NCBI GenBank assembly: GCA_030295235.1
Contig: AP026133.1
Span: 1,240,001 to 1,304,000 of the forward strand
Length of the DNA: 64,000 bases
Reading direction: 5' to 3'
Source: Fistulifera solaris
Lineage: Eukaryota
Position 1 is the first letter of the stretch, and every line of letters begins with the position of its first letter. Below, piece after piece: positions 6,671 to 54,066 of the stretch. Under the pieces are notes generated by a model. It saw only the letters and a program-made list of their open reading frames with translations. It searched no databases and was not told the origin of the DNA. The translations under genes were made by a program, and so were the position numbers.

Positions 6671-9600
6671 CTACCGAACAAGGCACCGAGCAGGGTCGCT
6701 AGTTTCGAACCGGCATGTGCACCCTTCTCCGTCCCTCACAACAATAACTGAAGCAGAACGTGATAATTTCGCTGCAGTCAGCGTAAGAAGCAGGCCGTAT
6801 TGAATCGTAAAGAGCACAAATTTCATTCGGTAGGATCCCCGTTAGGTCGTTGTCGTCAATTCGAATGATCTCTATACTCGTCATCAGCGCTATGTCGGCA
6901 GGTACAGGACCTTCCAACTGGTTCGAGTTCAAGAAAAGCTGACGCACATTAGTCGCGCCACCGAGATTCGTCGGAATGGTCCCTTGCAAAGCATTTTCAC
7001 TCAGATCGAGTCTTTGAAGCTGTGTCAGTTGACCCATTGTTGATGGAATGGTGTTAATTAATCCGTTGGCTTTCATATTCAGCTGTCGCAAATTCACTAA
7101 ATTGTTGATTTGCTCCGGAATCGAGCTACCGAAGTAGTTGTTCTCACTAAGATCGAGAACCTGGAGGCTTGTCACGGAGAGTACGCCAAGGGGAAACTCT
7201 TCGAAATTGTTTTGCCTCAAGTTCAATTTTTCAAGAGACGATAGACTCGAAATTGAATCGGGAATCGCTGTGAAGTTGTTTGCTTCCAGGTTCATTTCTT
7301 TAAGCATTGATAAAGAGGAAAAGACATCAGATGGAATGGATTCCAGCAAATTACCGGAAAGGTCAAGGAAGGTGATTTCGGTAAGTGTAGAAAATGAGCC
7401 AGGAATGTCACCTTGAAGGCTGTTGAAGCTTAGATCAAGCTGCTGTAGCTGTGATAGTTTGCCGATCTCGGAAGGGATCGGACCTTCGAAGCTATTTCCA
7501 GAGATCACAAGTGAGCTGAGGACGGACAGCGAAATCACAGTCGACGGAATACCGCCGGTCAACGTGGAGGTGCTGTCGCGAGGATTGCGAATACTTATGC
7601 TGGTTAGTGTTGTTAGCAACGATATCTCATGCGGCAGCTCTCCTTGGAGGTTATTATCGTTTAGTGAGAGCACCAGCAATTCGTTATCAGGTGAACATCG
7701 TTGGGAGTCTGTGGAACTAGAATGCCAAAGACATTCATCTACGTCGGTAACCCAATCCGAATTTTCGGTCCACGAATCGCCATTCGTACTGTAAAATAAA
7801 GTAGCCAAGGCATAGCGCTGGACTATACGCAGGTCGTCCGTAGCTTTTGGCTCGCTTTCTGTCAACCATTTGAATGCAGTTCCTTGAGGCGTCTCGAGGT
7901 CAAGCAATGATTCGCAATCAGGAATAAGAGGACAAAGCAAGTCATACGCTTGTTTCTGATTAGGATCAATAGGCACGGCTTCAGAAGGCGAACTGGTTGG
8001 GGCGGTTGTAGATTCAATCGAAGGGTCCGCAGGATCGTCTTCTCCGACAGCAATTCCAATACCGACACCCGCGGCGATGCCAATAGCAATAAGAAGGATT
8101 CCCATCAAAAGTAAACACCGCTTTGTCCAATGGTTACCACTCCAATTCCTTTTAGCGTCCTTTCCTGACTCTGACTCGATCGCTTTTGTGTCAGTGTCCG
8201 ACATCTCTCTGGTGATCCGATCATCTCGCTGCATCTCGACGTCATTGTCAAGCCCGGTCGCTTCTATTAATGCATCTTTGTTGCCCGAGCGATCCAACCG
8301 ATCAAAAGCTCCAGGCTCGCCTTTTGCTGATACGACCATGAATGCTTCCTCTTCATCCACAGCTGCAGTTGCTGGATTTATTTCGCTTCTAGTCCACCAT
8401 CCGCGTTTTTCTCGCGGTGTACGTTCTTTTTCTGCCTTTCATTCACATCTTCAAATTCCGTTTCGTTTACTGGAGAGCTTTCAGTCTTTGCCCACCAGCC
8501 ACTTTTCACTGGAATTTCACCCTCTTTACTTTGGGGCTCATCGGACACCTCAGGTTCGATTTCGTCACCTGCGGCATGCTCTTTCGATGTCCGCCAGCGG
8601 CGCATAAATAATGGTACTTTGGCCGCTTCGTTTTGCATTAGGTCCTGAGTATCTGAGTCTAATTTGTCTTTCATATGATCTTCATTCCGACTATCCGCTG
8701 CAGATGGTTCCTCATTATGATTAGGCAGGGGCTCTACCAGCAAAGAGATACCTTGCCTTTTCCACCAGCTTCGTTTCACTGGTTCTTCACTTTCCTCTTT
8801 TTGATTTTCATCATGCGGCTCAGGTTCAGAGTCGTCTTGGGCGAGATCGGCTTTCCTCAGCCACCAACGCCTTTCTGCTTGTTTTTCACCCTCGTCTAAT
8901 TGTTGCTCTTCGCGAGTGTTCGATTTGAGTTCGTCTTCTTCGAGATTTTTCTTCTTTTCCACCAGAACCAAGACTTATTTTCTTTGCTAGTTGCTTCGCG
9001 ACCGCCAAGAATTTTTTCATTTGGAGACGTTGGTTCGACAGAATGACCATTGCTGAAATTATCATCATCGTCAGAGACGACTGCAATCTCGTTGACAGAG
9101 TCCGCAATGAACTCTTGCTCGATCGCAGCATCTCCTACCTCTATATCTTCATACTCTTCAGATTCGTCCTCTAATATTTCTTCTTCGATTTCAGATTCTT
9201 CTTCGATTTCAGATTCTTCTTCTAGTTCAGGCTCGGGATTCTCAATCTCATAGTAATCCTCCCCGCCTTCTTCTTCTTCTTCTTCTTCGGTCTCAATATT
9301 GGATTCGTCGCCTGCTTCTAAGATCTCGTTGTTCATATTTTCCTCGGTTTCAACTTCCACTTCAGAGTCCTCTTCATTCTCAACTTCAACTTCGGATTCT
9401 TCGTCTTCACTTTCAGCTTCCACTTCAGAAATTTCGTCGTCACGCTCGGCTTCGACATCGTAGTCTTCGTCCTCACTTTCAACTTCGACATCTGCGTCGT
9501 CGTCCTCACTCTCAGCGTCGACATAGGAGTCTTCGTCCTCACTATCAGCTTTCACATCAGAGGCCCCGTCCTCGTCATCGAGATTGAAGCTCTTTCCCTC

Positions 9601-12600
9601 TTCCTCGTCATCTTCTTGGGAATTTTGTTCCTCGTCCACGACGTCCTCCTCAGAAGCTTCTTCATCATCGACAAGAACAAGAATAGGTTTTGAGGATTCC
9701 TCTCCACCCTGGACATTATCTTTCAGGTGTTCTTCCTCGTCGTTAACCATGCCTCTTAGGCGGTTTTCGTTCTCCTGAGTAGTAGTTTCCACTCGGTCAT
9801 CCTCTCTGTCGACTTTCGCATTTTCTGTGGCCATTCTTCGTCTTAGCAAAGCCATCTGCACTTCATCGTTCATCTTCACCGTGGAAGTTCCAAGCGGATG
9901 ATTCCTGCGGATTTTATCGTCGATACTTTGTTCGTCGTTGCTCGATTCAGTCTTTTGCCGCCGCCTGCTAAAGATCGCTGCCAAGTCAGTACTCATCGAC
10001 GGTTTGTCATCTTGTATTTCTTTCTTTCTCTTTGTAAGATCGCCCCCCATGTCTTTTCCGCTGTCGGCTAGTTCTCTCCGACGCTGCAAAATGGAAAACA
10101 GACTACTTTTTGACTTTTTCTTTCTCTTTGTCTTCGAGTTCCTTTGCTGCCTTTGCCTTCAGCTCTGCTTCTTCTTCGGCTTGTTTTTCTGCCAGCAAGC
10201 TCGCCTTTTCATCTTCTTCTGCTTTCAGTCTTGCCGCTTCTTCTTTGACCTGCTTTTCTGCTAGCAACCTCATATTCTTTTCTTCTTCCGCTTTCATTCT
10301 TGCAGCTTCTTCTGCTTTTATCCTGGCCTCATCTTCTTCGGCTTGTATTGCGGCCAACAATCTAAGCTTTTCTTCTTCTTCCGCTTTCAATCTTGCCGCT
10401 TCTTCTTTGACCTGCTTTTCCGCTAGTAGCCTTGCATTCTCTTCTTCTTCCGCTTTCACTCTTCCCGCATCTTCTTCTTCTTTCAACCTGGCCTCTTCTT
10501 CTTCGGCTTGAATTTCGGCCGACAATCTAGCTTTTTCTTCTTCTTCTTCCATTTTCAATCGTGCCGCTTTTTCTTCGGCCTGCTTGTCCGCTAACAGCCT
10601 CGTCTTTTCGTTTTCGTCTGCTTTTACATTAGCCGTTTCTTGTGCTTCGTCGGGGATCTCGTCTTCAGCCACTATTTTTGCCGTTCCGGTGAGCAAAATT
10701 GCCGATTCGTCGGTAATTTTTGTGTCTTGTGCCGCAACTTCCGACACAGGCCTTCTTAAATCTTCTACAGCTTTTATCATATCTTCATCGGTGCTAGAAC
10801 GCTCAAGTACGGGTAGAGGTTCCATTGAGGATACTTCTCTCTCAATGTTCAAGTCTGACGCTAAACGAGTAATGCCAGAAGGCCTATCATCCTCTTGGTT
10901 TTCTGCCGCCTTCATCTTTGCTCTGCGCCCGATTCCAAAAAGACCTCTCTTTTTCGTCTTTTCCGGCAACTGGTCAGTTTCAATTGGAGCAAGAGTTGGA
11001 GTAGTTGTGGTCGCAGAATGAGATTGCGATGATGGGTCATGAGGAGCCGAAAGCTGTGTCTCTCTTTCCGAGGGTGCGGCTATATCTTTTCGATTATTGA
11101 AACCAAAGATTCCTCTCCTCTTCTTTTTCTCTGGGACGGAGACAGCAGTTGACGATACCTCTGCTATCTGATTAGCAGACGCAGGTTCTCTTGCAAATGA
11201 CTGTCGATTTTATCAATGCGATAAGTTGCATCTCCCATAATTTCCGCGGGTTTCGAGATTTCATCGATATCTGTTGGTTCCACCGTCGCGTCTTCATTGC
11301 CTGCCAATACAACATTATTGCGTGAGTCTTCCGTTCCCGTTTGGATAGTGCTCGAGGCAACGGTAAGGATTGGTTCTTGTGGAAGCGGATCCCTGTCACG
11401 GCTTTTCGATCGAGACCGATCTCCACGTCGAAATAATCCCATCAAGCCACGTTTCTTTTTAGAGTCTGCAGCAGTGGTGGATTGCGATTCTGTTACGGAG
11501 TCGCCCGATAGAATAATTCTGTTTTGCACATCAGGGCCGTCCTCGTCTTCATCACTACGATTCGCTGCCACCACGTTTGCTACAGTTGGTGGTAGAACTG
11601 CCGCAATTCTTTCCTCGTCTTCGTCGTCATCATCGTCGGAAAATTCAGAGTCATCCAAGTCTATCAAACGCGACTGTCGACGTGGTTTTTGTTCTTCGAA
11701 CAAAGTTGATTCCATGGCAGCCTCCGTAGTGTCTCCTATGATGTCGACATCTTCAGCTGTATTGCCCTGCTCATATGCATGAGCTACAACTTTCGCTTCC
11801 GAGGAATGTTGAGTGGAGGCATAATCCACTACTTCCGAAATATCACGATGGTCTGACTGGTCTGCTGCGTACAATGTGAGACGCTCTTGTTCAGAGATCA
11901 AATCCTGTTCATCATGTAGATTTAGCTGCTCTACCCTTTCACGACCGTCCGCTACTTCATTCGGTGTAACGTCTATTATTTGCTCGAGCTCTTCATGTGC
12001 CGATCGCGATGTCTCCGAGACGTCGGGCGCCGTTTCAACGTCGTAATCTTCCGATTGGGTATTTCGTTCGGAGCTTTGCAACAAACTAGCTGATGATGTA
12101 TCTGCCTTTCTGGAAGGTGTACTGACAGAGTCATCATTCACCGAGGTCTCCGCATCAGTGGAGATGACAGCTGGTGGATCTTCCTCACGCTTCGCTTCAG
12201 TCGAGTCAATAGGGGACACGTCTGTTGATTGGATCGATCCGGATTGTTCGGAAGTAGTTGACGAACTGTCACGAGAGCTGTCATCGTCGCTCTTTGTTGA
12301 TTCTGAATCCGATGAGTTCGAGGACGAGGAATGGGATGAGTCATCATTGTCATCCGATGTGGATGTTGTTGATGCTGCCGTAGAGTCACCGACAGTTACA
12401 CTTTCTCTGTCGGTTTCATTTTCGGAGGCAGAATTGGAGCTACTGCTACTGCTACTGCTACTGCTGCTGCTTCTACTACTACTCCGGCTCGATTGACTGT
12501 CGCCGTCGCTACTTTTGCTGCTTCGACTGCTTTTACTACTCGATGAAGATGACGAAGCATCCGAGCTTGGCGCTGCACTTGAACTTTCCCCCGTATCTGA

Positions 12601-12891
12601 ATTTGACGACTGACTTCGTCTTGATGAATCATCTGCCGTATCCGAGTTACTCGTATTTTCTGACGAAGACGAGCTACCAGAAGACTTTGAAGAAGAAGAA
12701 TTCACCGAGGATTTTGATGCCGATGACGAGGAGGAAGAGGATGACGACGATGAAGATGATGACGAGGAGGAGGACGACGACGACGACGATGAAGAAGATG
12801 ATGAGGAAGATGAGGATGAGGACGAGGACGCCGCCGAGCTGATCGACGAGTCATCTTCCAAGCCCTGCTCTGACATGTTAACATACTTCAT
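6671..12891 (-). CDS. Giant (~2,070 aa) type II membrane LRR protein: poly-Ser/acidic disordered region, EK coiled coil, TM helix, LRR ectodomain (five apparent frameshifts)
   Basis: ORFs 11164-12891, 10103-10969, 8896-10089, 8378-8971 and 6699-8360 join by single-base indels in homopolymers. TM CLLLMGILLIAIGIAAGVGIGIAV; diatom-type LRR cap (TPQGTAFKWL, QRYALATLFYST...W...C.W); plant-specific-type LRRs LxLxxNxLxGxIP; corrected end CCEDGEGCTCRFETSDPARCLVR*. Confidence 0.8.
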
Positions 12892-25650: not shown

Positions 25651-28600
25651 CTACTGTCGATATGGTTTGACGCGACGAATGGAAATTCGTTCGATCGTGA
25701 AGGCATTTCGTCGAATGCTGATGGTACCATTGGTATGGACTTGGACAATCGTAAATGGTCCGTACGCACGAGGCGCAAGTTTAGAAGGATTGTCGGCTAA
25801 TTTTAGCACTTTATCACCAATACGATAATCGTACGAAAATCTTTTGCGATTAGCTAGAATCATACGCTTGTCAATAAGTTGTTGACGATGTTGTTGGATA
25901 TTAATCCAATCTGCAACGACCGGTAGGTCGAGAAGCATGTCCCGGCCAAAAACAAGTGACCCAGGTGTTGCTTTTAAACCGCTGTGCAACGAAGCGCGTA
26001 TTGCATACATGCAATTGGCCAAGGCAGTGTCGACCATTTGTTTACCACTGGTAATGCCTGTGGAAGTGGCTAAGCGCGTCATGGTGCGAAGGGTGTTACC
26101 GACGACCTGATGCATGCGCTCACAAATTGAATTCCCTTGGGGATTTTTTGACCGTAGTAGGACGTGGAGTGATATGATTTTCCGCAAGTAGTGTTTGAAA
26201 ACCGTTACCGGTAAATTCAGTACCGTTGTCGTAAGTAACACTTACTGGTTTTGGATAGCGTGATAACCACACGTTATTGAATTGCATAGCAACGTGGTCT
26301 GACGTTTTATTGTCGAGTCGGACGAGCTCCGTCAGATGTGTGACTGGGTCGATCATTGTCAACGCAATAAATGTTTCATCGTAACCATGAAGATTGAGAG
26401 TCCACGGACCAATCAGGTCAACGTGAACTTCACGCCATGGATGGGCGGAGGCTTCGCGGGGCGCAGTTTCGCCATAGCCACGGGAAGGCGGTTTAGCCAT
26501 TTGGCATTCGTCACACTTGGCAACAATTTGCTCGATGACATCACGAAGTTTCGTGTTGTACAAGTGGATGCCGATGGTGTCTTCAAGACGCCGCTGGCCA
26601 AGATGACCAAGAGTGTGATGATACCACTCGACTGCCGGACGAAGTAATTCGTCTGGAAGGTAAACCTTCCAAGGTTCTGAGGGTGCTGGGATGTAGCAGC
26701 AGAGCTCGAGGTCAGGGGCAAGTTGATTCATCAGAAATTTTTCTGGATGTTTTTCGCGCAGAAGGTTTAGCCGGGCGTCCCTCAGCTGTGCTTCGCGGAT
26801 TGTTCGGTAGTCGACTACGAACGGAACCACCTCGGTGGGTGGTAGGTTGACAAAACAATCTAAAAGATCAGAGTCGTCAAGTGCCATGGAACTTTGTGTG
26901 TCTCGCGCAGGCAAGTCTGCGCCGGAACCGGGATTTTTGTTTTCATCGAATGAAAGCCGTGACAATGCATCAGCAAGAGGGTTATCAATGCCCTTTATGT
27001 GATAGAGTTTGATACCAAACTCTTCCAAGCAGAGTCCCCAGCGAATTACTCGCTGGGATTGTGTTGACAAATCGGAAGAACCGACGTTGTTGAGGTGGTC
27101 TGTATAGACATGGAGGTCAGGGCAACCGTAGAGCATAGTTTTAAATTCTTTAAGAACTTCAACAACTGATAGTAACTCTTTTTCACCAACGGTGTAGTTG
27201 CGTTGAGCTGCATTGAGCTTCTTTGACCAGTAGGCGACTGGAGCGCCTTCTTGCATGATAACAGCACCCATTTGGGTGTCGCTGGCATCTGTATAGATGT
27301 GAAATGGTTTGTTATGATCCGGGTATCGGAGGAATGCATCTTTGGCGAGAAGAGCTTTTATCTGCGCGAATGATTTGTTTATTGCTTCTGTCCAGATGAG
27401 TTTTGCGTTACCGCTAGAAACAGCAGTTAATGGAGCCAGAACTCCAGAGCGTTGTCGCCACATGTCGCGATAAAAGTTTACCGCGCCGAGGAAAGAGCGG
27501 AGTGCTTTCTTTGTTTTTGGATTGTTGATCGCGAGGATCGCATTGATTTTCTTACGCCAAGGCTTGAGCCCTGTCGGAGTAAGCCAGTAACCTAGCCAGT
27601 CGGTTTCTTGAACCCCCCACTCACATTTGAGTGGATTCACAGTGAAGTTATTATCTTGTAAGATAGTTAAGACTTTATCAAGCGATTTGATATGATCAGT
27701 CCAGGAATTGGAAAAGCAGCCTACATCGTCGATGTAGCAGTTGACTTCGTCGAGTTGACGGAAGAGATCTTCCATGACTTCTTGAGCGATGTCAGGGGCC
27801 ATTGATATGCCCATCGGTAGACGATTATATCTATAGTTGCCGAAAGGCGTGCAGATGACGCAAAGGTCCTTGCTTTCTTCGGTGAGTTCGAAGGTGTAGT
27901 AATGCATCGAGACATCAATTTTGGAGAAAAAAAAACTGTAGCCCGATCGTTGCGACAAAATGTCGGTTATTTTTGGGATAGGATAAACCTTTCGTTTAAT
28001 AACTTTATTAAGTTCTCTGAAATCAGAAATCCAGCGAACGCGACCGTCCTTTTGGTATAATAAAGGATGGAGCGAGCCATTCGTTTGCTCCGCAAGGAGA
28101 CAAGACGCCAATTTGGACGAGCCGTTCGATTTCGGCTTTGAACGTTTTCAAATGATAACGAGAAACACCGTAAGGTCGTTTTGCGACGGGTGTTGCGCCG
28201 GGTTGGAGTTCGAGATGAACTTTTTTGCGATGATATTTACCGAGCTGTCCGGAGAAAAGCTTTTTATATTTTGAAAATAGTTGCGCGAGGTCCTGCCTCT
28301 GTGATGGTGTGAGATGTTTCTGTTGCAAAGCAACGGAAGTCGGATCGACTGATTCGTATTTAGATTCAAGAATATCTTTGGATTTATATCCTGCCTCTCG
28401 GGCAATCTGTTCACGAAAGGTGAGGCGATCGTTAAAGGATCATCGGCGTGTTCGGAAACAAACGACGCGGAGGGTTGATTTGCGAAATAATCGGCAGGCC
28501 GAAATGGAATCATTTCGTCGAGCCATCGCACAGTGAGAGTAGAACTCAAAATGTCTATACCCAATGGGATAAGAACGTCATTACCTAGAATGATATCGTA

Positions 28601-37491: not shown

Positions 37492-37952
37492 TTTTCCTAT
37501 TCAGCTTTTCTAAAACTAAGTGTAATTTTTCTAAATTTGATTTGCTACTTATGCTTTAGGCTTTTCATGGTTGTATTCATTTGATAGGTTTTTCATCGGA
37601 TCCAGAGTTAGGCGCAAGGAGTTACAGTTTTACAGGCGACGATCTCGTGTCCCGTCTATTAGCTCGTCGAAATCGAAGAATCCGTTAGTGCTTCTACGAC
37701 ACGATTACATTTTGTAAGTAATTTTCTGAGCTTCACCCGGTACCGTACTTTTGGATACGCACGCGCACGCGTGCTAAGACGATGATGAGCAATGCGCGGC
37801 TCGGCTGTCGGCAATCCGCAAACACAAACAAAACAAGAAACAAGGCATTTATCACTATAACTTGTTGTGGATTCAGGTCTCGTGTGCTTTCCCTATTGTT
37901 TTCACGACAGTTGAGGAAAAAGGAGCCCTCTGAACGGCAAGCTTAACGAGAA

Positions 37953-39908
37953 ATGTCGCCGCAAAATGACCCTTTTCCGATGAGTTCTCCGGAGGCACAG
38001 CGCCTTGCGGCATCGGTAGGAAAAGGTGAAGGAGGTCAAACCAGTCAATCCTGGAGTTCTATGAATACGCAGTCTGCAGGAAAAGGACCTCGAGGTGAAG
38101 CAATTGAAGCAATCAGTGCGTCGAAAGGTCTCATTAAAGGTGAAAGCAAGTCGTATGATCAAGAAAACGACGAGCAAAATGAAGACGAGTTCTTTGATCG
38201 ACCAATGTGGGAGTCTCATGGGAACTCTTCAGAACGAAGAATGACACGCGTGTTGCGGATACTTGAAAGGATCTTCAAACGACTCTATGGTGACAAACTT
38301 CCACCGGCAGAAATGATACGAACCCTTTGCTTGGCTTCAACGCTTTTCTTTATGATTGGTGGCTACTGGTTGTTGCGCTCTTTGAAAGACCCTGTCCTGT
38401 CGGCTCTTTGCGGAATTGAGACTATCCCGAAAGCCAAGATTGTGTCAGTTTTCGTCGTTCTTGGCGTCGTTTCGATTTACAATCATTTACTGGACTCGGA
38501 TATCCCCAAGCATCGTCTTTTCTACATCTTCGGGACGTTTTACTTCGGGGCATTCATTGTTATTGCTCTGCTGCTAATGCACCCAACTATCGGACTGAAA
38601 AATGAAAAACCGAATCCATATCGACTTTTGGGATGGATTAGTTACTGCACGATCGAATCCTTCGGTTCCGTCATGGTCAGTTTGTTCTGGTCCTTTGCCA
38701 ACTCGAACATTACACTCGAGACAGCCAAAGCCAGTTACGGAATTATTGTTGCTACTGCACAGATCGGAAGTATTATCGGTCCGACGGTAGCTAGATTTGC
38801 GGAAACATTAGGGTAAGTGTATTTTGAAAAGTGGTTTTTGCTCTGATTGGCGCTCGTTTCACTCATGCGAATCGTCGCGCACCGCAATCGCAGCGTGGCT
38901 TCGTGTTACATGATCGGTGCGCTCTGTATGTTGTTGCTGCAAGGAACGATGCGGTTTTACATAGCCACCTATGGTGTTCAGGATAGAAATACCAGCAACC
39001 TCACAACAACAAAGAAAGCCAAGACCGGAATTTTGGAGGGGCTGCATCTCTTTGCGAAACACAACTATGTGAAGGGAATCTTTGCCATCAGTTGCTTATT
39101 CATGGTTGAGGTTACTATTGTTGACTTTACGATGAAACTTCTCGCGAAAGAGTACTTTGCCGAGGAATATCCTTGCGAAATGGGAATGGACTGCTACGAC
39201 GCACTGACAGGGGAACACGGAACATCAGCTCAAGCCACCGCTGCATTTGCCTCGTTCATGGGTCTTTTTGGACAGGCTACGAACTCCTTGTCGTTTTTGT
39301 TTAGTTTGTTTGGAACCAGCGCGGTGATTCGCTTTCTTGGCCTCCGATTGACACTTCTACTTTTTCCTTCCCTTTGTTTGTGCGTCATCATTTTTGTAAG
39401 ACTTTATCCAACTCTCTATGTTGTTTTTGGTGCTATGATGTTGCTAAAAGCAAATTCGTACGCACTCAACAATCCTACCAAAGAAATCCTTTACCAACCC
39501 ACCAGTTCTGCGGTGCGGTACAAAGCGAAGAGTTGGATCGATATTTTTGGTGCACGAGGTTCCAAAGCCCTTGGCAGTCTTGTTACGAATTTCTTTTCGG
39601 ATAGTGCCGCTAATCTAATTGCAAACGGAAGCTTCGTGGGAATGGGAGTTGCATCGTTTCTAATCTGGAATGCACGTTTCATGGGAAAGAAATTTGATGA
39701 GTACATCGAGACCGGGTATATCGTGGGCGGCGACGATGAAGATCAAGGTGAAAATGAATACACAAGTGTGGAAATGGCGTCTTCGCAGAACGATAAAGAG
39801 GAAACAAGTTGTGCTATTGACGAAGATGACGAATTGAGCCATGAAGAGGAGGGACAAGGCTCCGATGCCGCGGATAATTCAAAGAAGGCCAAGGTACAAA
39901 TGGTATAG
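37953..39908 (+). CDS. Nucleotide transporter (NTT/TLC ATP/ADP translocase family); intron 38813-38893
   Basis: [42 protein letters not shown]...[17 protein letters not shown]; the GT..AG intron restores the frame. Confidence 0.9.
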
Positions 39909-43010: not shown

Positions 43011-44558
43011 TCACCCCCATAAAGATTCGTCGTTCTCCCAGTTCATATTTACGAGAGGATCTGGGCTGGAATTTGGTGGCTGCTTTACAGAGTGACCTTG
43101 TCTCTCTTTCGCGTCGACCGGGCGTCCACCTATGTCAACTTCGACACCGTCGTCGAAAAAGCGAAAGGCCAACGGAGCCCCAATCAAGCGTGTTTCATTC
43201 TCGTTCGGAGGCGGCTCGTTCTCTTTGAGATTGTTTTTGTGATCCACATCAAGTCGTTGCCTTTTACTAGTGATTCGTTTCCTTTCCTCCTCCTTGCTTA
43301 GAATTGAAGTGGCTTCAGTCGCGTTCACACCATTCACTGCCCGCTTACTAGATGAAAAACTATCTCGGGAAGCATCTGAATTCATGCTTGCTTGTTGAAT
43401 CTTTCTATGCGACAGCATACAACTCTTCTTGCTTTCTTCTTTTTTACGCTCTGACGAGTCCGACTTGTTGTTGGCCTTAACGTCATCTTGCGCTCTGCTC
43501 TTGAAGCGTTCTATTCCCTTAGGAAATTCATCTCCCTGGATATCTTCATTGAAGTTCTCATTGCTTTTCAGTAAGTTGAGGTTGAATTTGCTCTGGCCCA
43601 GAACCCATCTTTCGCTAAAATCAGGACGCTCATTGATCTCAAAGTTCTCTCCGTTGCAAGAAGCGAATGTTTCACTCGGCATTCTCGAGGACGAAAAAGC
43701 AGTTGCTGTATCCAAAGGGGGATGATTTTCTATGTTTGGGCTGGCTCCGAAATCGTTGGTATCGTACTCGGGGTGTATATTCGTCATGCAGTTTAGCGAA
43801 TCTTGATGCAGTGAATGCTCTCCCGCCACGTGTCGCTCAAAAGGCAAAGGTCCCATACCCAAGTTACTGCACATTGATGCCGCGTCCCGATCAAATGTCA
43901 CGGTCCGGTTCCGAAAGTGCGCTATTCCTCGTTCCGAGTCTTTCGGTATCGGAGCTAATTGGTGAGCAAGAGTGTCATCGCCCTGAAATGCATAACAGTG
44001 CTGCGAGAATGCCACATCTGCGTGGTCGCGATTCATTGCGTAATAGTCATACTCATTCGGTGGAAGAGTTGCGTAGTGTACAAATTGTTCACGATTTTTC
44101 CATCCATTGTGATCTCCAGACTGAGGGCCTTGATAGTGCGCAGCATTTTGATGTTGATAAGTAGCGTCGCAAGAAAGTAGCATTTCTCCCGGAGGTGGGA
44201 GCATTTGCTGTTCGAAATAAGTAGGATTAGCTGGATTATTTTTCTCGTATCCGTACGATGCAGGATGATGGGGCTCAAGAAAGGCGCAGTGTTGTTGTTG
44301 CAGCCGTGCGTGAGGTGAACGACTTAGGTGATCTTGATAAGGATCACAACGCTGAAAGAAAGCCGGATTCGCTGCAACCGGGATCTCGTGCCAAGATGTC
44401 GCTCTGTTATCTCGGTTAGGCTGAGGAAGAATCGTTCCCGGAGGGTAGCCACTCTCTTGATGCAGATGATGAAGGGGGCAGCGTGCAGGACTAGACGGTG
44501 TAACGGCTCGCCTATAGAGAGGATCAGCCCATTTTGAATACGTTCCCGTCACTAGCAC
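43011..44558 (-). CDS. Hypothetical, largely disordered protein
   Basis: 515-codon open frame; no domain recognised; start uncertain. Confidence 0.55.
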   Translation of the reverse strand: MLVTGTYSKWADPLYRRAVTPSSPARCPLHHLHQESGYPPGTILPQPNRDNRATSWHEIPVAANPAFFQRCDPYQDHLSRSPHARLQQQHCAFLEPHHPASYGYEKNNPANPTYFEQQMLPPPGEMLLSCDATYQHQNAAHYQGPQSGDHNGWKNREQFVHYATLPPNEYDYYAMNRDHADVAFSQHCYAFQGDDTLAHQLAPIPKDSERGIAHFRNRTVTFDRDAASMCSNLGMGPLPFERHVAGEHSLHQDSLNCMTNIHPEYDTNDFGASPNIENHPPLDTATAFSSSRMPSETFASCNGENFEINERPDFSERWVLGQSKFNLNLLKSNENFNEDIQGDEFPKGIERFKSRAQDDVKANNKSDSSERKKEESKKSCMLSHRKIQQASMNSDASRDSFSSSKRAVNGVNATEATSILSKEEERKRITSKRQRLDVDHKNNLKENEPPPNENETRLIGAPLAFRFFDDGVEVDIGGRPVDAKERQGHSVKQPPNSSPDPLVNMNWENDESLWG

Positions 44559-45270
44559 ACAAGAAAGGAGTCAGCGCATGAAGGAAACTCATTGAACTGA
44601 TTGATAAGAAATACTTACGCCCTCTTATGCTTCTTCTAACAAAACTGGGATGTCGTTTTGTCGTCGTTGAAGGCTCATGCGAAATTGAGATTCTCGGCGA
44701 CGGCAAATCTCCCAAAGACGCTCGCCTTTCGAAAGACCTATTCATACGCGACTTCAGTCTATTCGCGCCAGAAGTCATCCATTTATCTCCTGTCATTTTA
44801 TGAAAAAGTCAGGGTGAGGTTTTCATTGTTTTGTGTCTTTGTGTTTCTACTACGTATCGCTGCGTTTGCGATGATCTTGTTTTCGTTGTTAAAGTTTACT
44901 GTTATTATTGCACTTGTCGTAAACCGTCCTCAACGCTGAACGGTTTTTGTTTGTCTAACTAATCAATCTTTACCAGGTAGAGGTAGAGGAGGAGGAGTGA
45001 GTCTATTGTTACACTGTTGGACTCGGAATCGCGACTGACGAGTCACGCACCAAACTAAAGAGCGCGGACGACACAAGACACAAGAGGCATCAAGTAAAAT
45101 CAAATATACATGATAGCAACTATGAATGGGCGCCTTAATTCACGAGATGAAAAATATAATTATTAACCAATTAACAGCACCTGAGCAAAGAGCTCGCCAA
45201 CATTCGAAAAGGACTTGCTTGCTAATCGCCCCGTGCGAGACACACTAACGAGTTTTATGCAACATCAAAC

Positions 45271-45825
45271 TTAGTGACCATCATGTCCATGCGCCCCGTC
45301 GTTATCATGACCGTGTCCCTCTTTGTGAGACAGCGAGCGGTCGAAAAGAGAGCGCATGTGGCCATCATGTCCATGCTCATCACCATCGTGTCCATGACCT
45401 TCTTTGTGTGACAAAGAGCGGTCAAAGAGCGAGCGATGACCGTCATGTCCATGCGCTCCGTCGTTATCGTGGCCGTGGCCCCCTTTGTGAGACAAGGCGC
45501 GATCAAAGAGCGAGCGATGACCATCATGGCCGTGAGCTCCATCATTATCATGACCGTGGCCGCCTTTGTGGGACAAAGAACGGTCAAAGAGAGAGCGATG
45601 ACCGTCATGGCCGTGAGCTCCGTCGTTATCGTGGCCGTGTCCCCCTTTGTGCGACAAGGAGCGGTCAAAGAGCCCTCCAGTTGACGTGGAGAAGCCAGAG
45701 GCAGCGATGTACATCACCGAACCCAAAGCAACAGCCGCGCAAAGGAATCGTCGACGGAAGCTCTTCTCAGAAGAGTTGACACCAGCGATGGTGTTGGTTT
45801 CATGAGTTGCTTCAATGTCATACAT
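45271..45825 (-). CDS. Membrane-anchored His/Gly/Asp-rich repeat precursor with RXL motifs (184 aa)
   Basis: RRR + hydrophobic helix FLCAAVALGSVMYIAASGF, then 5 units of ~27 aa (FDRSL-SHKGGHGHDNDGAHGHDGH-RSL); differences between repeats are mostly synonymous. Confidence 0.85.
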   Translation of the reverse strand: MYDIEATHETNTIAGVNSSEKSFRRRFLCAAVALGSVMYIAASGFSTSTGGLFDRSLSHKGGHGHDNDGAHGHDGHRSLFDRSLSHKGGHGHDNDGAHGHDGHRSLFDRALSHKGGHGHDNDGAHGHDGHRSLFDRSLSHKEGHGHDGDEHGHDGHMRSLFDRSLSHKEGHGHDNDGAHGHDGH

Positions 45826-47116
45826 GGTGGCGAGGGAACTACTTATTCGTGCGATCAAAGCGTTGTTATTGCTGATGCTATTTTTATGAGCAACGCGAAT
45901 GAGGCAACTGGAGCTATTTAGAGATCTGGAATCTGGAGATCTTTTGACGCTTCATGCTTCAGAGCGGGGACATGGACATTCTTCGATGGCATGGGTCATC
46001 ATTCATCATACTCTTGCAATAGCTTCTGTACTCTAATACTATTGCCTGGCCTATTTCTTTCTGCCCATGCAGTTTTCTATCATTCTATCTTGGCTGAGCC
46101 GAGACCTACAGAATAACCAAAGTTGGATTTTAGTTAAAAGTCTTGGTTGAATTGACAAAAATTTGAAAACCTTTTTCGAATTCATTTCCACTCCTTTACT
46201 TAGAGTCAAATTATACTGCACTAAATACTTGAAAATTTCTTTCGGATCGATTGGTTCTTCCGCTCCTATGTAGAAGATAGGGCATAAGTTATTCGACTAT
46301 CCACGTCTAAGTTCACAACGTCACTTCCATGTCACTTAGAAAATCAAAGTGATACGTTAGTGTACCTGGCATCGATGCGGCGAGTCGTGAAAAAGCATAA
46401 TGAATGAGGTTCGCATGTGCATCTCTCACAATCTCCCTTGCTCTGTCACAAAATTCACGGGGTGCCCCATAAATCTAAGCGAAAACATTCATCTCTCAAG
46501 GAAAGCTCATGCAAGCGTTCCATGCTTAGGCTTCCGATGGACTTCACTTAACGGACTAAATTTTGTACGGATTAACAGGCGCGGAAAAGGAAGAAAGACT
46601 ATGACTAAAGATTACTTGTATAGATTGAATTTGCGTCGCCTCTGTACTGGGTCTCACTGCGGGTCTGGGCCTGGCCGAAGGCCTTGGATTGCCATCAAAG
46701 CCTACACGTGACAGTTAATTTAGGTCCGTGGATGATTGAAATCAACGAGACCTTCTCATGCATGCTCAGGGAGCTCGAGAATCTAACGGGGGCTCTGAAA
46801 ATTGCAAGTTTTTTTGCATTATTAGGTACACAAATTATATTCATAAATTAATCCTCCGTAGCATTAGTTTTCTGTCTACTAAAGCTAGCGACGCAAGACT
46901 GAATAGTCCCTGGGCGCGCTAGATGGTGAAGCCATCACTTTGTACAAGAAATGCGGTGCGCACCGTTGAGCATGATAATCCTGCCGAGCCTCGAGGGCAT
47001 GTTCAGTGAAATAAGTACCCAGATAAGATAAAGACTTGCAGTTACAACATTTTCGTATTTAGACACTCGATGTACTTGGGAGTTATAATGGATGGTGTTG
47101 TTGTGATATAAAAAGA

Positions 47117-48073
47117 TTAGGATTTCTTCAGGTGCTGGAGTACGCACACCAGACGAAAAGCTAGCATTTCGTCGTCCACTTGAACCCCTTCTTCTAATGC
47201 ACCATGCATTTCCACTAGCTCAAGACCCGCACATCGAGCGAGTGCAGCAATTTCTTGTGCCGTAAAGAGCCTCAGTGGTACGACTTGTCGAATATTCTGA
47301 ATGCCCTCCGATTGTGCAACTCCCACAAGCTCCATCGCGACTGTAAATTGCCTAACTTGTCGAATGGGATCAAACGCGTCTCCATCATCGCCCCAAATAA
47401 TTTTTAGCTCTCCTGATTCTTTTCCGGAATCGTCTTCCAGCGGCACTTTCCAACTATTTTTGGTACATTCGACCATGGAGAAAGTTTCACGCGGGTGTGG
47501 GAGCTCTAGCACAATGGTGCCATCCTCCGCTAGTGCTTCCTGAACCGCTTGTAAACAGGATATTACGTCATCATTGGAAGTGAGATGCTGCAAGGAGCCA
47601 AGCAGAATCCATACCGTGTCGACAGAGTCCTTGCCGTTTTTATATCGAAACGATCGCATATCATCGACGCAATACTGAAACGACTTGAGCTGCTGTTCAT
47701 CTAGCAACTCTGCGGCTATTTCTATTGCGTAATCTGCCATTTCTTGTGAACTATCTACCGCTGTAGCCGTCTGAATAGAAGAGTCCGACAAAGCCGTAAG
47801 AGCATGCCGAGCTGGACCTGCCGCCAGCTCAAGTACTGAAAGTGCCGGACGACCTACCAATCGTTCGTGTGTATTCAATAAAAAGTCCACTTCTTCTTCA
47901 AAGTCACGATACCCAAACGCTAAATCGTAGAGTGCTGGGAGTGAGTAGATGGATTCTCCTTTTCCCACAGTAGCACGAAGAGATGTGACACATTTCTTTT
48001 GTGTCGTCAAGATGAATGCTTGATTGGAGGCCGTAAACAGTCCAAAAACGAACAGGAATGCCGGACGACTCAT
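47117..48073 (-). CDS. Class I SAM-dependent methyltransferase, probably plastid-targeted
   Basis: YDLAFGYRDFEEEVDFL, VLELAAGPARHA, AVDSSQEM, DDMRSF, GSLQHL; signal peptide + AF motif. Confidence 0.85.
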   Translation of the reverse strand: MSRPAFLFVFGLFTASNQAFILTTQKKCVTSLRATVGKGESIYSLPALYDLAFGYRDFEEEVDFLLNTHERLVGRPALSVLELAAGPARHALTALSDSSIQTATAVDSSQEMADYAIEIAAELLDEQQLKSFQYCVDDMRSFRYKNGKDSVDTVWILLGSLQHLTSNDDVISCLQAVQEALAEDGTIVLELPHPRETFSMVECTKNSWKVPLEDDSGKESGELKIIWGDDGDAFDPIRQVRQFTVAMELVGVAQSEGIQNIRQVVPLRLFTAQEIAALARCAGLELVEMHGALEEGVQVDDEMLAFRLVCVLQHLKKS

Positions 48074-48530
48074 GTTACAGCTAATTGATCGTCCCCGTTT
48101 TTGATTATAAAGCTTACTGGCGCAAATGGATTGTTCGAATTTGATACAACGGCACACATTTTTTCGTTGTTGTTTGGTTTGATCTGGTTATTAGTATATA
48201 AGCCTCTTATTGTTTGGTTCGATGGTCGACTGTCGACTGTCGACTGTCGACCAAGAGATTCAAAGACGTATGGTAGCACGGACCATTAACCATTACTCCC
48301 AACCCCAACAGGCAACCATAAAATCTGGGGGTTTGATATTATTTTGACGTGTCCTCCTACCTCCTACTAGAGAGTTATGATTACCAGTACGATCTTCAAC
48401 TCGTTTTCAATTTCTTACGTCGGCAGTTCACAACTACTCCCAACCGGCAACCGGCAGATTGCGGACCTCGACCGACGGCAACAATAATACGGAGTACTCC
48501 GTACAAATAGTAATCGCCTCTATCCGACAC

Positions 48531-51727: not shown

Positions 51728-52011
51728 ATCCGACACACGACACACGACACACTCGTCTGCGAATGAAATGCATGTCGACATGTTTTTGCTTTTGTTTTTG
51801 TGTGAGAAACAAACTACCGGTACTAGTAGGTAAACAAAGAGCGTTCGAGCCGACAAGTAATACAGAGTGAGGACGGGAGAGTTTTCTTGCAAAAACAAGG
51901 ATACCGTGATAGGATTGATTCGCGCAAAGACAAATACTAGTACTTGTGCATCCAAAGAATCAACAGCGCCTTACGGGATAGTATCCTTTGTTGTCATTAC
52001 ATAACTCAAGA

Positions 52012-54066
52012 ATGATACTCACAGCAACGAAAAAAGAAGTTTCACCCAGGATTCCTACCAAGCTTGTTTTACTGATCGTGTGTCTATTGCCTGGATTAAT
52101 AATACCGTCCGAAAACCCCGCTGGATGGGTCGACCCCGACACGCCGTGGGAGGCACGAACGACACAAAAGTACAACGCCATCCCACACCAACCCTCTTCT
52201 TCTTCGTCGTCGTCGTCGTCGACAACAAGTACAATCACCAGCAACAAACGAAAACGACCGACAGCAGAAGCCAGTGCACAACCATCGGCGGCACCATCGC
52301 ATTCGACGGAATTTCCTTCACAATCTCCGTCGTTGTCCCCTAGTTCTTATCCCACTTACGTTCCGCGCAATTTTCAATTAGTCTTTAGTGATGAATTCAA
52401 TACGCCCTTTCGAACCTTTGTGGATGGTGCCGATCCGCGCTGGACGGCTCTCGATAAGAATGATTACACAAATGACGCGCTGCACTATTACTCTCCGGAA
52501 AATGCTTTTACGAACGAACAAGGGGAACTGGTGATTACCAGCGAAGCGAAAAATACCGATATTGTGGGCTTTGATGACATTCAATTGAAAAAGACTCGTG
52601 TGACGAAACATTTTCGATCCGCTATGCTGCAAACGTGGAATAAATTTTGCTTCACGGGAGGTATTATGGAAGCCGAAGTCATTCTTCCAGGAAAACACAA
52701 CGTCGGAGGCTTGTGGCCGGCATTTTGGTTACTAGGTAATCTGGCGAGACATACTTACGTTGGTACATCGGAACATATCTGGCCGTGGAGCTCCACAACG
52801 TGCACACGCAAGTCGTTTACCGCTCAAGCGGTTTCGGCGTGCGATAGGGCGGCGCACTATGGATTAGAACAAGGTGTCGGTCGAGGTGCGCCAGAAATTG
52901 ACGTATTTGAAGTGCAACCAGGGAATATCAAAGGAAACACGGGCCCTTTTCTCAAAACGACAGTAGGACAACCTTTCATGAGTGCGTCATTTCAAGTTGC
53001 TCCAGGTCGATCGGCCAATCGACCTGGACCCGGTGAGTGGCCGGGTCCAACACAATGGTACAAAGGCTTGACGCCCGGAAGGAATACAAGTCTCAATATA
53101 CTGTTCTATGGCGACTACAATCACTTTCTGGATGATGTTCATCCCGCTGAGCAAGACTACTGGAGTGATGCTATCAGTATGAATCGACAATTGGATCAGA
53201 CTTACTTCGAAAATCCCCACGTGTATCGAGTCGAATGGGAACCACCAACCGAAGGTTTTGGCGGCTACTTGCATTGGTTCTTGGACGGTGAACTTGTTTT
53301 CGCTTTGAACGGTACAGGAATTCAATCAGCAGGATACGGCGCGGAAATATCGAGCGAACCGAGTTACATTTTGTTGAATACAGCGATATCCAAGCAATGG
53401 GGTTTTCCTCATGAATGTCCAGCGAATTGCCCTTGTAAGCAGTATGATTGTAATTCAGAGCACTGGGAAAGCGCGTGTGGATTTTCCGAGGGGTTTTGCG
53501 ACATGATCAAAACGAGACCGCAGTACAAGATTAACTGGGTAAGAGTCTACCAAGATCCCCAGAATCCAATTCACAAGGTGGGATGTTCAACACCTGAGCG
53601 ACCAACTCGTCGATTTATTGAAGCTCGAGAACATTTATATAAGTCTCCAAGCGATGTTAGACCGTTGAAAGGAGTACAACGTGGTGGTGGCATTTGCTTG
53701 CCTTCTGCTGCCGGGGTCGTACCTGATGCCTGCGGTGGTGATGAAAGAGGGAGATGTACTGCTGGCAAGGTGTGTGAGTGCAGGGTGGGATGGACGGGTC
53801 CCCACTGTCTCGCCCCGCAAGGACGCGACCCTATTCTGTATGATGAGCCTGACAGTATATTGGACGTCGGATTCATACCGCCGCGTGTATTCCCGATGTT
53901 CTTGGCCGTAGGAGGTATCTTGCTTTTGAGCTTGCTACTCTTAACGATTGCCGGGCGAAGACGATTAGAGAGTTGGTCCCCCATTCCCAGCGTCGAGGCG
54001 CAGTCTCTCGCGAAGTTTACGGCTCAGGACAACTACTCGGGACAACAAGAAGTTTACTGGACATAG
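52012..54066 (+). CDS. GH16 KRE6/SKN1-like 1,6-beta-transglycosylase (TGS-type, chrysolaminarin-related) with EGF-like module and C-terminal TM
   Basis: GWVDPDTP, LVFSDEF, SAMLQTWNKFCFTGG, GLWPAFWLLGNL, GRGAPEIDVFE; C..G.CEC..GWTGPHC; TM helix. Confidence 0.9.
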   Translation: MILTATKKEVSPRIPTKLVLLIVCLLPGLIIPSENPAGWVDPDTPWEARTTQKYNAIPHQPSSSSSSSSSTTSTITSNKRKRPTAEASAQPSAAPSHSTEFPSQSPSLSPSSYPTYVPRNFQLVFSDEFNTPFRTFVDGADPRWTALDKNDYTNDALHYYSPENAFTNEQGELVITSEAKNTDIVGFDDIQLKKTRVTKHFRSAMLQTWNKFCFTGGIMEAEVILPGKHNVGGLWPAFWLLGNLARHTYVGTSEHIWPWSSTTCTRKSFTAQAVSACDRAAHYGLEQGVGRGAPEIDVFEVQPGNIKGNTGPFLKTTVGQPFMSASFQVAPGRSANRPGPGEWPGPTQWYKGLTPGRNTSLNILFYGDYNHFLDDVHPAEQDYWSDAISMNRQLDQTYFENPHVYRVEWEPPTEGFGGYLHWFLDGELVFALNGTGIQSAGYGAEISSEPSYILLNTAISKQWGFPHECPANCPCKQYDCNSEHWESACGFSEGFCDMIKTRPQYKINWVRVYQDPQNPIHKVGCSTPERPTRRFIEAREHLYKSPSDVRPLKGVQRGGGICLPSAAGVVPDACGGDERGRCTAGKVCECRVGWTGPHCLAPQGRDPILYDEPDSILDVGFIPPRVFPMFLAVGGILLLSLLLLTIAGRRRLESWSPIPSVEAQSLAKFTAQDNYSGQQEVYWT

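Follow-up and report, generated by a model that had tools for sequence, protein, structure and literature searches.

A transcribed Fistulifera solaris gene encoding a putative RXL-processed precursor of histidine-rich repeat peptides

Silaffins, silacidins, cingulins and frustulins are described as carrying an Arg-X-Leu (RXL) motif behind the signal peptide and at repeat ends, and mature silaffins as lacking the RRIL or RRNL tail, being excised at the RXL-bearing ends of their repeats (PMC4557024). An N-terminal RXL is reported to mark propeptide cleavage in most biosilica proteins (PMC5647440; PMC9650480). The membrane proteins of the silica vesicle (SAPs) are said to carry RXL and to be cleaved, and RXL sites to have been reported so far in biosilica-associated proteins only (PMC5647440). 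We describe here a gene for a histidine-rich repeat protein at positions 45271-45825, minus strand, of a 64,000-nucleotide stretch of Fistulifera solaris contig AP026133.1 (GenBank assembly GCA_030295235.1, positions 1,240,001 to 1,304,000), called the window below. By analogy with the proteins above, its product is best read as an endoplasmic reticulum (ER)-targeted precursor that is cut at RXL sites, the cleavage being putative; the gene would thus place a new peptide class in the known architecture of RXL-spaced repeat peptide precursors.

A first-pass annotation of the stretch had proposed an open reading frame (ORF) of 184 amino acids (aa) with RRR, one hydrophobic helix and five repeats of about 81 bp, ending at the last peptide. 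Every one of these was found, on the minus strand, which it had left unstated. Contigs of four public runs were mapped onto window positions 44000-47500 in 30 bins. Run X1 covered 30/30 bins and behaves like DNA, since intergenic stretches are also covered. The transcript-like contigs of run X2 filled 10/30 bins, namely 45139-45865 plus the next gene from 47174. On the plus strand, 20 T precede the X2 contig at 45139 and are therefore read as the poly(A) tail of a minus-strand RNA; no joint occurs inside the gene among the X2 contigs, indicating no intron. A 244-base piece from run X5 (library recorded as freshwater metatranscriptomic RNA) covers 45617-45860 with 0 differences. The RNA contigs of X2 and X5, which come from two studies, stop at 45865 and 45860, and X1 continues beyond; this is a weak hint that 45860-45865 is the 5' end of the transcript. 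The gene is real, transcribed, intronless and previously unannotated, and the transcript that the first-pass annotation asked for is present in X2, where it is polyadenylated, and in X5. The transcript and coding sequence (CDS) are as follows.

45139 to 45865, minus strand: mRNA of ~727 nt, intronless and polyadenylated, with untranslated regions of ~40 nt (5') and ~132 nt (3'), from the public-run contigs.
45271 to 45825, minus strand: CDS of P0001, 184 aa plus stop, start context GCCACCATG.

Upstream of the CDS start, no ATG occurs within 126 nt. A collection of ~15 billion protein sequences lacks the exact protein, and the only gene call for a near-identical copy (P0003) is a 28-aa "hypothetical protein" from a 61.7-kb contig; the gene has therefore evidently been missed or mis-called in annotation.

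Tandem Repeats Finder placed an array at 45275-45673 (period 81, 4.9 copies, 79% matches, score 449). By script, five units start with FDR, at residues 53, 80, 107, 134 and 161; units 1-4 are 27 aa long and unit 5 is 24 aa, the ORF stopping right after ...HGHDGH. The parts of the protein are listed from the N-terminus, A1 being a three-way protein alignment taken up below and the slash a candidate cleavage point.

45748 to 45825, minus strand: N-terminal tail, residues 1-26, ending SSEKSFRRR, predicted to be cytosolic (alignment A1, flank charges).
45691 to 45747, minus strand: hydrophobic segment, residues 27-45, a predicted signal anchor or signal-peptide core, ending AASG/F (Kyte-Doolittle, AlphaFold2).
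45655 to 45690, minus strand: spacer or propeptide, residues 46-57 (STSTGGLFDRSL), with the first LFxRxL site (L52, F53, R55 and L57 invariant in 3/3 aligned sequences).
45598 to 45654, minus strand: His-rich peptide 1, residues 58-76, 19 aa, 6 His.
45574 to 45597, minus strand: linker 1, residues 77-84, RSLFDRSL, with two RxL motifs.
45517 to 45573, minus strand: His-rich peptide 2, residues 85-103, identical in protein sequence to peptide 1.
45493 to 45516, minus strand: linker 2, residues 104-111, RSLFDRAL, with the sole linker substitution, at the X of RXL.
45436 to 45492, minus strand: His-rich peptide 3, residues 112-130.
45412 to 45435, minus strand: linker 3, residues 131-138, RSLFDRSL.
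45358 to 45411, minus strand: His-rich peptide 4, residues 139-156, 18 aa, a variant with E at position 4 and GDE.
45331 to 45357, minus strand: linker 4, residues 157-165, MRSLFDRSL, with an extra Met.
45274 to 45330, minus strand: His-rich peptide 5, residues 166-184, followed directly by the stop at 45271-45273.

The 132-aa repeat region contains 30 His, 28 Gly and 20 Asp (78/132 together) and 9 RxL at fixed positions. The whole protein has 0 Pro, 5 Thr (all outside the repeats), 6/184 Lys (3.3%) and 20/184 Ser (10.9%). Cutting in silico behind every R(S/A)L produces five peptides, each 18-19 aa long with 6 His and 4-5 acidic residues. R55-S-L57 sits 12 residues behind the hydrophobic segment, and its R and L are invariant in 3/3 aligned sequences.

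This layout (ER-targeting helix, 12-residue spacer, RxL, then peptide and RxL linker in alternation, Ser after Leu, and an ORF ending at a peptide end) resembles that of the silaffin (Sil1p) and silacidin precursors in its N-terminal ER-targeting sequence (here predicted), the RXL shortly behind it, the RXL-bounded tandem repeats, the new N-terminus at Ser after Leu (here only if cut) and the disordered product. It differs in peptides of His/Gly/Asp rather than Lys/Ser or Asp/Glu/phospho-Ser, in two RxL per linker (RSL-FD-RSL) and in a long conserved tail before the hydrophobic segment. No sequence similarity to silaffins or silacidins was found in the Pfam, word-index or full HMMER searches. 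TpSAP1-3 of Thalassiosira pseudonana are likewise single-pass membrane proteins, of the secretory or silica-vesicle route, that carry RXL sites; their cytoplasmic part is conserved, and their lumenal part is described as being released by proteolysis (PMC5647440). SAPs, however, combine a cleaved signal peptide with a separate transmembrane helix (type I) and have Ser-rich lumenal regions, whereas the window protein has a single N-terminal helix (type II or signal peptide) and a His-rich predicted lumenal part.

Selection acts on the peptide, not on the DNA. Units 1 and 2 differ at 11/27 codons, with 11 synonymous and 0 nonsynonymous changes (binomial P 6.5e-8, for 18 synonymous and 63 nonsynonymous sites), which bears out both the first-pass codon count and the view drawn from it. 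Synonymous changes far outnumber nonsynonymous ones in 10/10 unit pairs. In the six pairs among units 1, 2, 3 and 5, the synonymous difference per site (pS) is 0.40-0.90, near saturation, and its nonsynonymous counterpart (pN) 0-0.035; the copies are therefore old in DNA, yet each has been kept to the same amino-acid sequence. The constraint pattern is far beyond chance expectation. Among the few between-unit substitutions, one lies in a linker (S to A), at the free X of RxL.

Searched in full with HMMER, 1.84 billion representative proteins yielded three matches at E <= 0.001.

P0002, 101 aa, E 3e-24: MYDIE start, SSEKTFRRR, AASGFS and linker RSLFDRSL; its peptides start with SGK and are otherwise different.
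P0003, 28 aa, E 3.3e-7: 96% identity to the last unit.
P0004, 120 aa, E 2.3e-5: STEEKFRKR, one helix and two units of the form LFSRGLG(G/S)KSHGHD...SKSKSG.

P0002 and P0004 share the tail motif S-x-E-x-x-F-R-x-R, the helix, and LFxRxLxxK at 25-28-aa spacing. Alignment A1 is invariant at M1, D3, S18, E20, F23, R24 and R26 of the tail and at L-F-x-R-x-L-x-x-K at each unit start. P0004 has one RxL and only two His per unit, with a further RNL at the protein end; one of its two linker differences (S to G) is at the free X of RXL, and its peptides include SKSKSG, a silaffin-like Ser/Lys stretch. A fourth, partial relative is a 388-base X5 contig on 45658-45735 that shares the helix-coding part only and diverges on both sides, with KKFRRGLIFA before and LSHKADSHGG after the helix (hand translation of the contig's loose ends); it would be a further family member from another organism, or a paralogue. 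The periodic RxL is kept in all relatives, as RSLFDRSL in P0002 and LFSRGL in P0004, in line with the RXL spacing expected of homologues at first pass. The Ser-His-Lys (SHK) peptide start, by contrast, is not general to the family: besides the window, only the X5 partial relative has it, with SGK in P0002 and GGK or GSK in P0004. His positions differ between species, and the linker is better conserved across the relatives than the peptide.

Other searches were run at the protein, DNA and literature levels. A PDB sequence search of P0001 gave 0 matches at E <= 1, and the ESM Atlas (all and unnamed clusters) gave no usable match. In the word-index protein search, P0001 had 1 match in 8000 scored candidates, the candidate list being saturated by His-rich words; the A1 profile recovered only its own two members, and the N-terminal 62 residues alone gave 1 match among 4 candidates. 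Metagenome contigs gave 447 pattern matches with profile A1, 0 of them confirmed. In a second metagenome scan, a degenerate DNA pattern (two FDRxLxxK 45-66 nt apart) hit 35 loci, 10 of which carry the motif at least twice in frame; none of these 10 resembles a relative, all being other repeats or chance. In tblastn of three proteins against the window, no second copy appeared within the 64 kb. The sole Pfam match of P0001, Chorion_2 (E 0.081, below its cut-off), was discarded as composition noise, and a PEXEL-like reading of RSLFD (RxLxD) was dropped because the P0004 sites do not fit. Literature searches on diatom RXL, histidine-rich repeat proteins, histidine-rich biosilica proteins of Thalassiosira and the unit motifs (subscription journals and supplements being outside their scope) turned up no description of such a family, in line with the first-pass annotation, which recognized none.

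Residues 27-45 have a Kyte-Doolittle mean of 1.88 over 19 residues. AlphaFold2, run on a three-sequence alignment and informative only for helix versus disorder, gave a helix at 5-42 (predicted local distance difference test [pLDDT] 71-74 over residues 21-40) and pLDDT < 50 over most of the remainder (mean 47.4). The repeat array is therefore most likely disordered in this model. Upstream of the hydrophobic core, four basic residues and one acidic occur among 15 (~+3); the 15 that follow it have a net charge of 0. Under the positive-inside rule, the more basic flank of a membrane helix stays cytosolic; the repeats should therefore face the lumen or the outside, the side of the membrane that the first-pass proposal needs. 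The helix may be a retained type II anchor or a removed long signal peptide. Conservation of the tail in sequence argues for a cytosolic function and so for the anchor; an apolar run of only ~16 residues, followed by the small residues A-S-G, favors a cleaved signal peptide.

An N-terminal tail conserved in sequence is not what a discarded signal peptide usually shows; it fits a sorting tail in the cytosol and speaks for a protein that is never cut: a type II tethered, disordered His array at the cell surface or in the endomembrane system, in which LFDRSL would be a binding motif or spacer and His/Asp would catch metals near a transporter or buffer the lumen. The linker is also the best-conserved part (LFxRxL invariant), as expected of a binding motif, AlphaFold2 places short helices of low confidence at 2/4 linkers (106-110, 158-166), and general RXL cleavage is described as unproven (PMC5647440). 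Set against this, linker changes hit the free X of RXL in the window (its single substitution) and in P0004 (one of two), the reading frame closes on the last residue of a peptide without a further linker, and the position of the first site, directly after the helix, is like that of known propeptide sites. We regard an uncut protein as improbable.

The end of the hydrophobic segment also recalls the ASAFAP-type presequences that algae with red secondary plastids are described as using (PMC4329603): a hydrophobic segment, A-S-G/F and then a Ser/Thr-rich stretch, in both the window protein and P0002. On this basis the protein would have a bipartite plastid presequence cut at ASG/F, with a Phe-led, Ser/Thr-rich transit peptide, and the His array would belong to a metal-binding protein of the plastid or periplastid space. 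AASG/FST (window) and AASG/FSAP (P0002) resemble ASA/FAP, and positions +1 to +20 of the window protein, counted by eye, have 6 Ser/Thr, 1 acidic (D) and 2 basic (R+K) residues. The adjoining methyltransferase ORF (47117-48157) has an ordinary presequence, ...TASNQA/F, and the organism therefore uses the plastid presequence system. Plastid presequences usually have short N-regions, unlike the 26-aa conserved stretch before the core here; in P0004 none of the plausible cleavage sites has an aromatic residue or Leu, and the motif is absent there. Acidic residues follow closely behind, with 3 acidic versus 2 basic in +1 to +20 of P0002, and the periodic LFxRxL is left unexplained. Plastid import thus seems hardly probable.

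We return to a secretory precursor, cut at RXL sites and releasing wall- or silica-associated His/Asp peptides, a reading that we favor tentatively and that falls somewhat short of an even chance. Its steps differ in strength. It is likely that the helix inserts, leaving the basic tail cytosolic and the disordered array toward the lumen or outside. Rather better than an even chance can be given to cleavage by a diatom RXL-type endoprotease after the Leu of each conserved RxL, because the layout matches silaffin-type precursors point for point. The first site, 12 residues behind the helix, would free the array from the membrane in the way of the N-terminal RXL propeptide site of biosilica proteins, and the later sites would release five 19-22-aa peptides, perhaps together with FDRSL pentapeptides. 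That the ORF ends exactly at ...DGH suggests that the mature peptide can do without the RSL tail, just as mature silaffins do without RRIL. The last step, in which the imidazoles of the peptides would act in the silica deposition vesicle or cell wall, is overall possible rather than probable; the peptides would then play in diatoms the part that His/Asp (HD) domains have in sponge glassin and in grass Siliplant1, with binding of Cu, Zn and Ni as a built-in second property.

We lean to the wall or silica vesicle for four reasons. His/Asp tandem domains turn up repeatedly among the silica proteins of organisms unrelated to one another: the HD domain of glassin is described as crucial for silicification (PMC10772126), and Siliplant1 as having H,D-rich domains together with RXL (bioRxiv 10.1101/518332). 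P0004 combines the His motif with the silaffin-like SKSKSG. Silica-associated proteins are reported to be typically low-complexity, disordered and lineage-specific (bioRxiv 10.1101/2021.09.18.460806). Finally, the calculated net charge of the peptides switches with pH, from ~+4 at pH 5 to -0.6 at pH 7 and -2.3 at pH 8, so that in an acidic compartment where silica forms they would be polycations and, at the pH of the surrounding water, free His/Asp ligands able to bind metal. The likeness to the glassin (hexactinellid sponge) HD and Siliplant1 (sorghum) domains is one of composition and context only, namely His/Asp tandem repeats in silica-forming organisms. Their repeats also hold Pro-rich and other (His/Thr-rich or Pro/Lys/Glu-rich) domains, unlike the Pro-free window protein. 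Glassin and Siliplant1 belong to different kingdoms, and homology to either was not found in the full HMMER scan, which gave only three small proteins; no reference sequence of the two was compared directly.

Charge also bears on whether released His/Gly-rich peptides could be antimicrobial or signaling molecules, for which histatins and the Gly/His-rich plant shepherins are comparators of the antimicrobial type. A multi-copy peptide precursor and peptides that are cationic at mildly acidic pH would suit such a role; being net negative at pH 7-8 and having neither an amphipathic nor a hydrophobic face, the peptides make it very improbable.

The released peptides could instead form a ribosomally made extracellular metal buffer or metallophore, in which the free Ser-His-Lys and the HxH pairs would serve as ligands for Cu(II), Zn(II) or Ni(II), for detoxification or trace-metal capture. 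Each 18-19-aa peptide offers 6 His and 4-5 acidic residues, and a cut after L would put His at position 2 in 5/5 units and in the X5 relative. Xaa-His peptides are described as binding Cu(II) through amine, amide and imidazole N, with a fourth imidazole strengthening the complex (PMC7503498); this, with silaffin excision at RXL ends (PMC4557024), is the published background that the first-pass annotation had given as established, and both parts are borne out. As in GHK and other Xaa-His Cu(II) peptides, Ser-His-Lys would after the putative cut supply three N donors with imidazoles nearby (PMC7503498). Unlike in GHK, the free N-terminus of the window peptides is hypothetical and Xaa-His is not conserved in 2/4 relatives (SGK in P0002; GGK and GSK in P0004); the two are evolutionarily unrelated. 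So are the KS-type dehydrins, whose segment H-D-E-H-G-H-D-G-H resembles the unit core and whose similar H/D/G stretches are described as acting on Cu (PMC3617826). Exact unit conservation within the species fits a defined coordination site, yet a P0004 unit contains just 2 His, the placement of His varies between species, and in-vitro metal binding of any His-rich peptide would not prove function. Chemically, binding of metal by such peptides is a near-certainty, and it may be their main function; we put the metallophore well below an even chance as the explanation of the gene, but not far from the wall or silica role in plausibility. The first-pass annotation had offered a metallophore or a wall peptide; of the two, the wall or silica option is at least as likely, given the sponge and grass His/Asp silica proteins.

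Several points weigh against a wall or silica precursor cut at RXL. As a general rule, RXL processing is described as unproven (PMC5647440; PMC9650480), and its being known from biosilica proteins only may be study bias. The main text of a preprint on the silica proteomes of three species makes no mention of histidine or RXL (bioRxiv 10.1101/2021.09.18.460806). Only three unnamed relatives occur in large protein collections, and the family seems absent from model diatoms at the search sensitivity used. The better-conserved linker could make the linker, not the peptide, the functional element, and ASG/F behind the helix fits a plastid presequence. Silaffin and silacidin composition criteria are Lys/Ser-rich (KXXK) or Asp/Glu/Ser-rich peptides; with 3.3% K and 10.9% S and its repeats dominated by His, Gly and Asp, the window protein fits neither. 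Taken as a whole, the first-pass interpretation is supported in part: it keeps its architecture, peptide-level selection, transcript and periodic RxL, and loses the SHK start as a family-wide trait.

The gene region exists in two versions. X1 has two versions of the whole of 44000-47500; at 44000-44755, for example, two contigs show 0 versus 98 differences plus 6 gaps. X1, X2 and X5 also carry a second version of 45508-45703, with 19-20 differences per 166-196 bases. Taken singly, 19/24 of the differences listed inside the CDS are synonymous, and the other 5/24, at A33, Y39, G61, A70 and G88, affect no His and no linker residue; these counts cover the best-supported rows, beside 154 further rows, and within the repeat some contigs may sit on the wrong unit. 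Both versions of part of the His-rich gene occur in X2 (transcript-like) and X5 (metatranscriptome). Together these observations point to a pair of haplotypes, or of homeologous copies, that have diverged strongly and are both expressed. At 45376-45377, the second version in X1 and organism B of run X6 have a 3-base insertion in unit 4, and the last unit of P0003 reads GDGAHGH where the window has NDGAHGH; units therefore vary slightly between copies with the reading frame kept. Run X6 (small share, organism B) yielded related pieces of the 3' part only.

Pfam matches elsewhere in the window comprise Mak16, AAA ATPases, a Ty3/gypsy polyprotein, LRR, BTB, a TLC nucleotide transporter, SKN1/KRE6 and an HA domain; judged by this sequence, the window is nuclear eukaryotic DNA. 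This gene content, taken with the ASAFAP-type presequence of the methyltransferase ORF, agrees with an origin in a diatom or a near relative. No functional link of the His-rich gene to its neighbors was seen in the window. Other features observed were as follows.

8378 to 12891, minus strand: long ORFs with no Pfam match, extremely acidic, Ser-rich and disordered, with poly-Ser of > 40 residues and long Glu/Asp arrays, in a stretch of AT skew ~ -0.3; probably one large multi-exon gene.
26120 to 28111 (ORFs up to 30102), minus strand: Ty3/gypsy-type polyprotein with reverse transcriptase, RNase H and integrase domains.
37947 to 39905, plus strand: two adjacent ORFs, one matching the first half and the next the second half of the TLC ATP/ADP transporter profile, with ~33 bases between them; in all likelihood a single gene that has a very short intron or a frame change.
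47117 to 48157, minus strand: ORF with a methyltransferase domain, its N-terminus a short signal peptide and ...FTASNQA/F, like a classical ASAFAP presequence.
51982 to 54063, plus strand: SKN1/KRE6-type beta-glucan synthesis protein with a teneurin-like EGF domain at the C-terminal end.

For annotation, the gene is a warning, a near-identical copy having been reduced to a 28-aa "hypothetical protein." More broadly, some diatoms may make an RXL-processed His/Asp/Gly class that is neither silaffin nor silacidin, with five copies per translation of a membrane-anchored precursor, acting either as a pH-switched imidazole silica-former convergent with the glassin HD domain or as an extracellular Cu/Zn ligand with a GHK-like N-terminus; in this general form the proposal is doubtful. 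If the peptides are excised, they would be the first histidine-based member of the diatom repeat-peptide precursors, and the RXL route would serve cargo beyond Lys/Ser and acidic phosphopeptides. The gene offers five defined 18-19-aa peptides as targets and a six-residue LFxRxL context for hunting the RXL protease, and its conserved cytosolic tail motif may be a sorting signal. Should the metal reading be true, this would be a gene for an algal metal-binding ligand, and the ligands inferred in natural waters would gain one molecular identity. Should the silica reading be true, diatoms would join sponges and grasses in using His/Asp-rich domains for silica.

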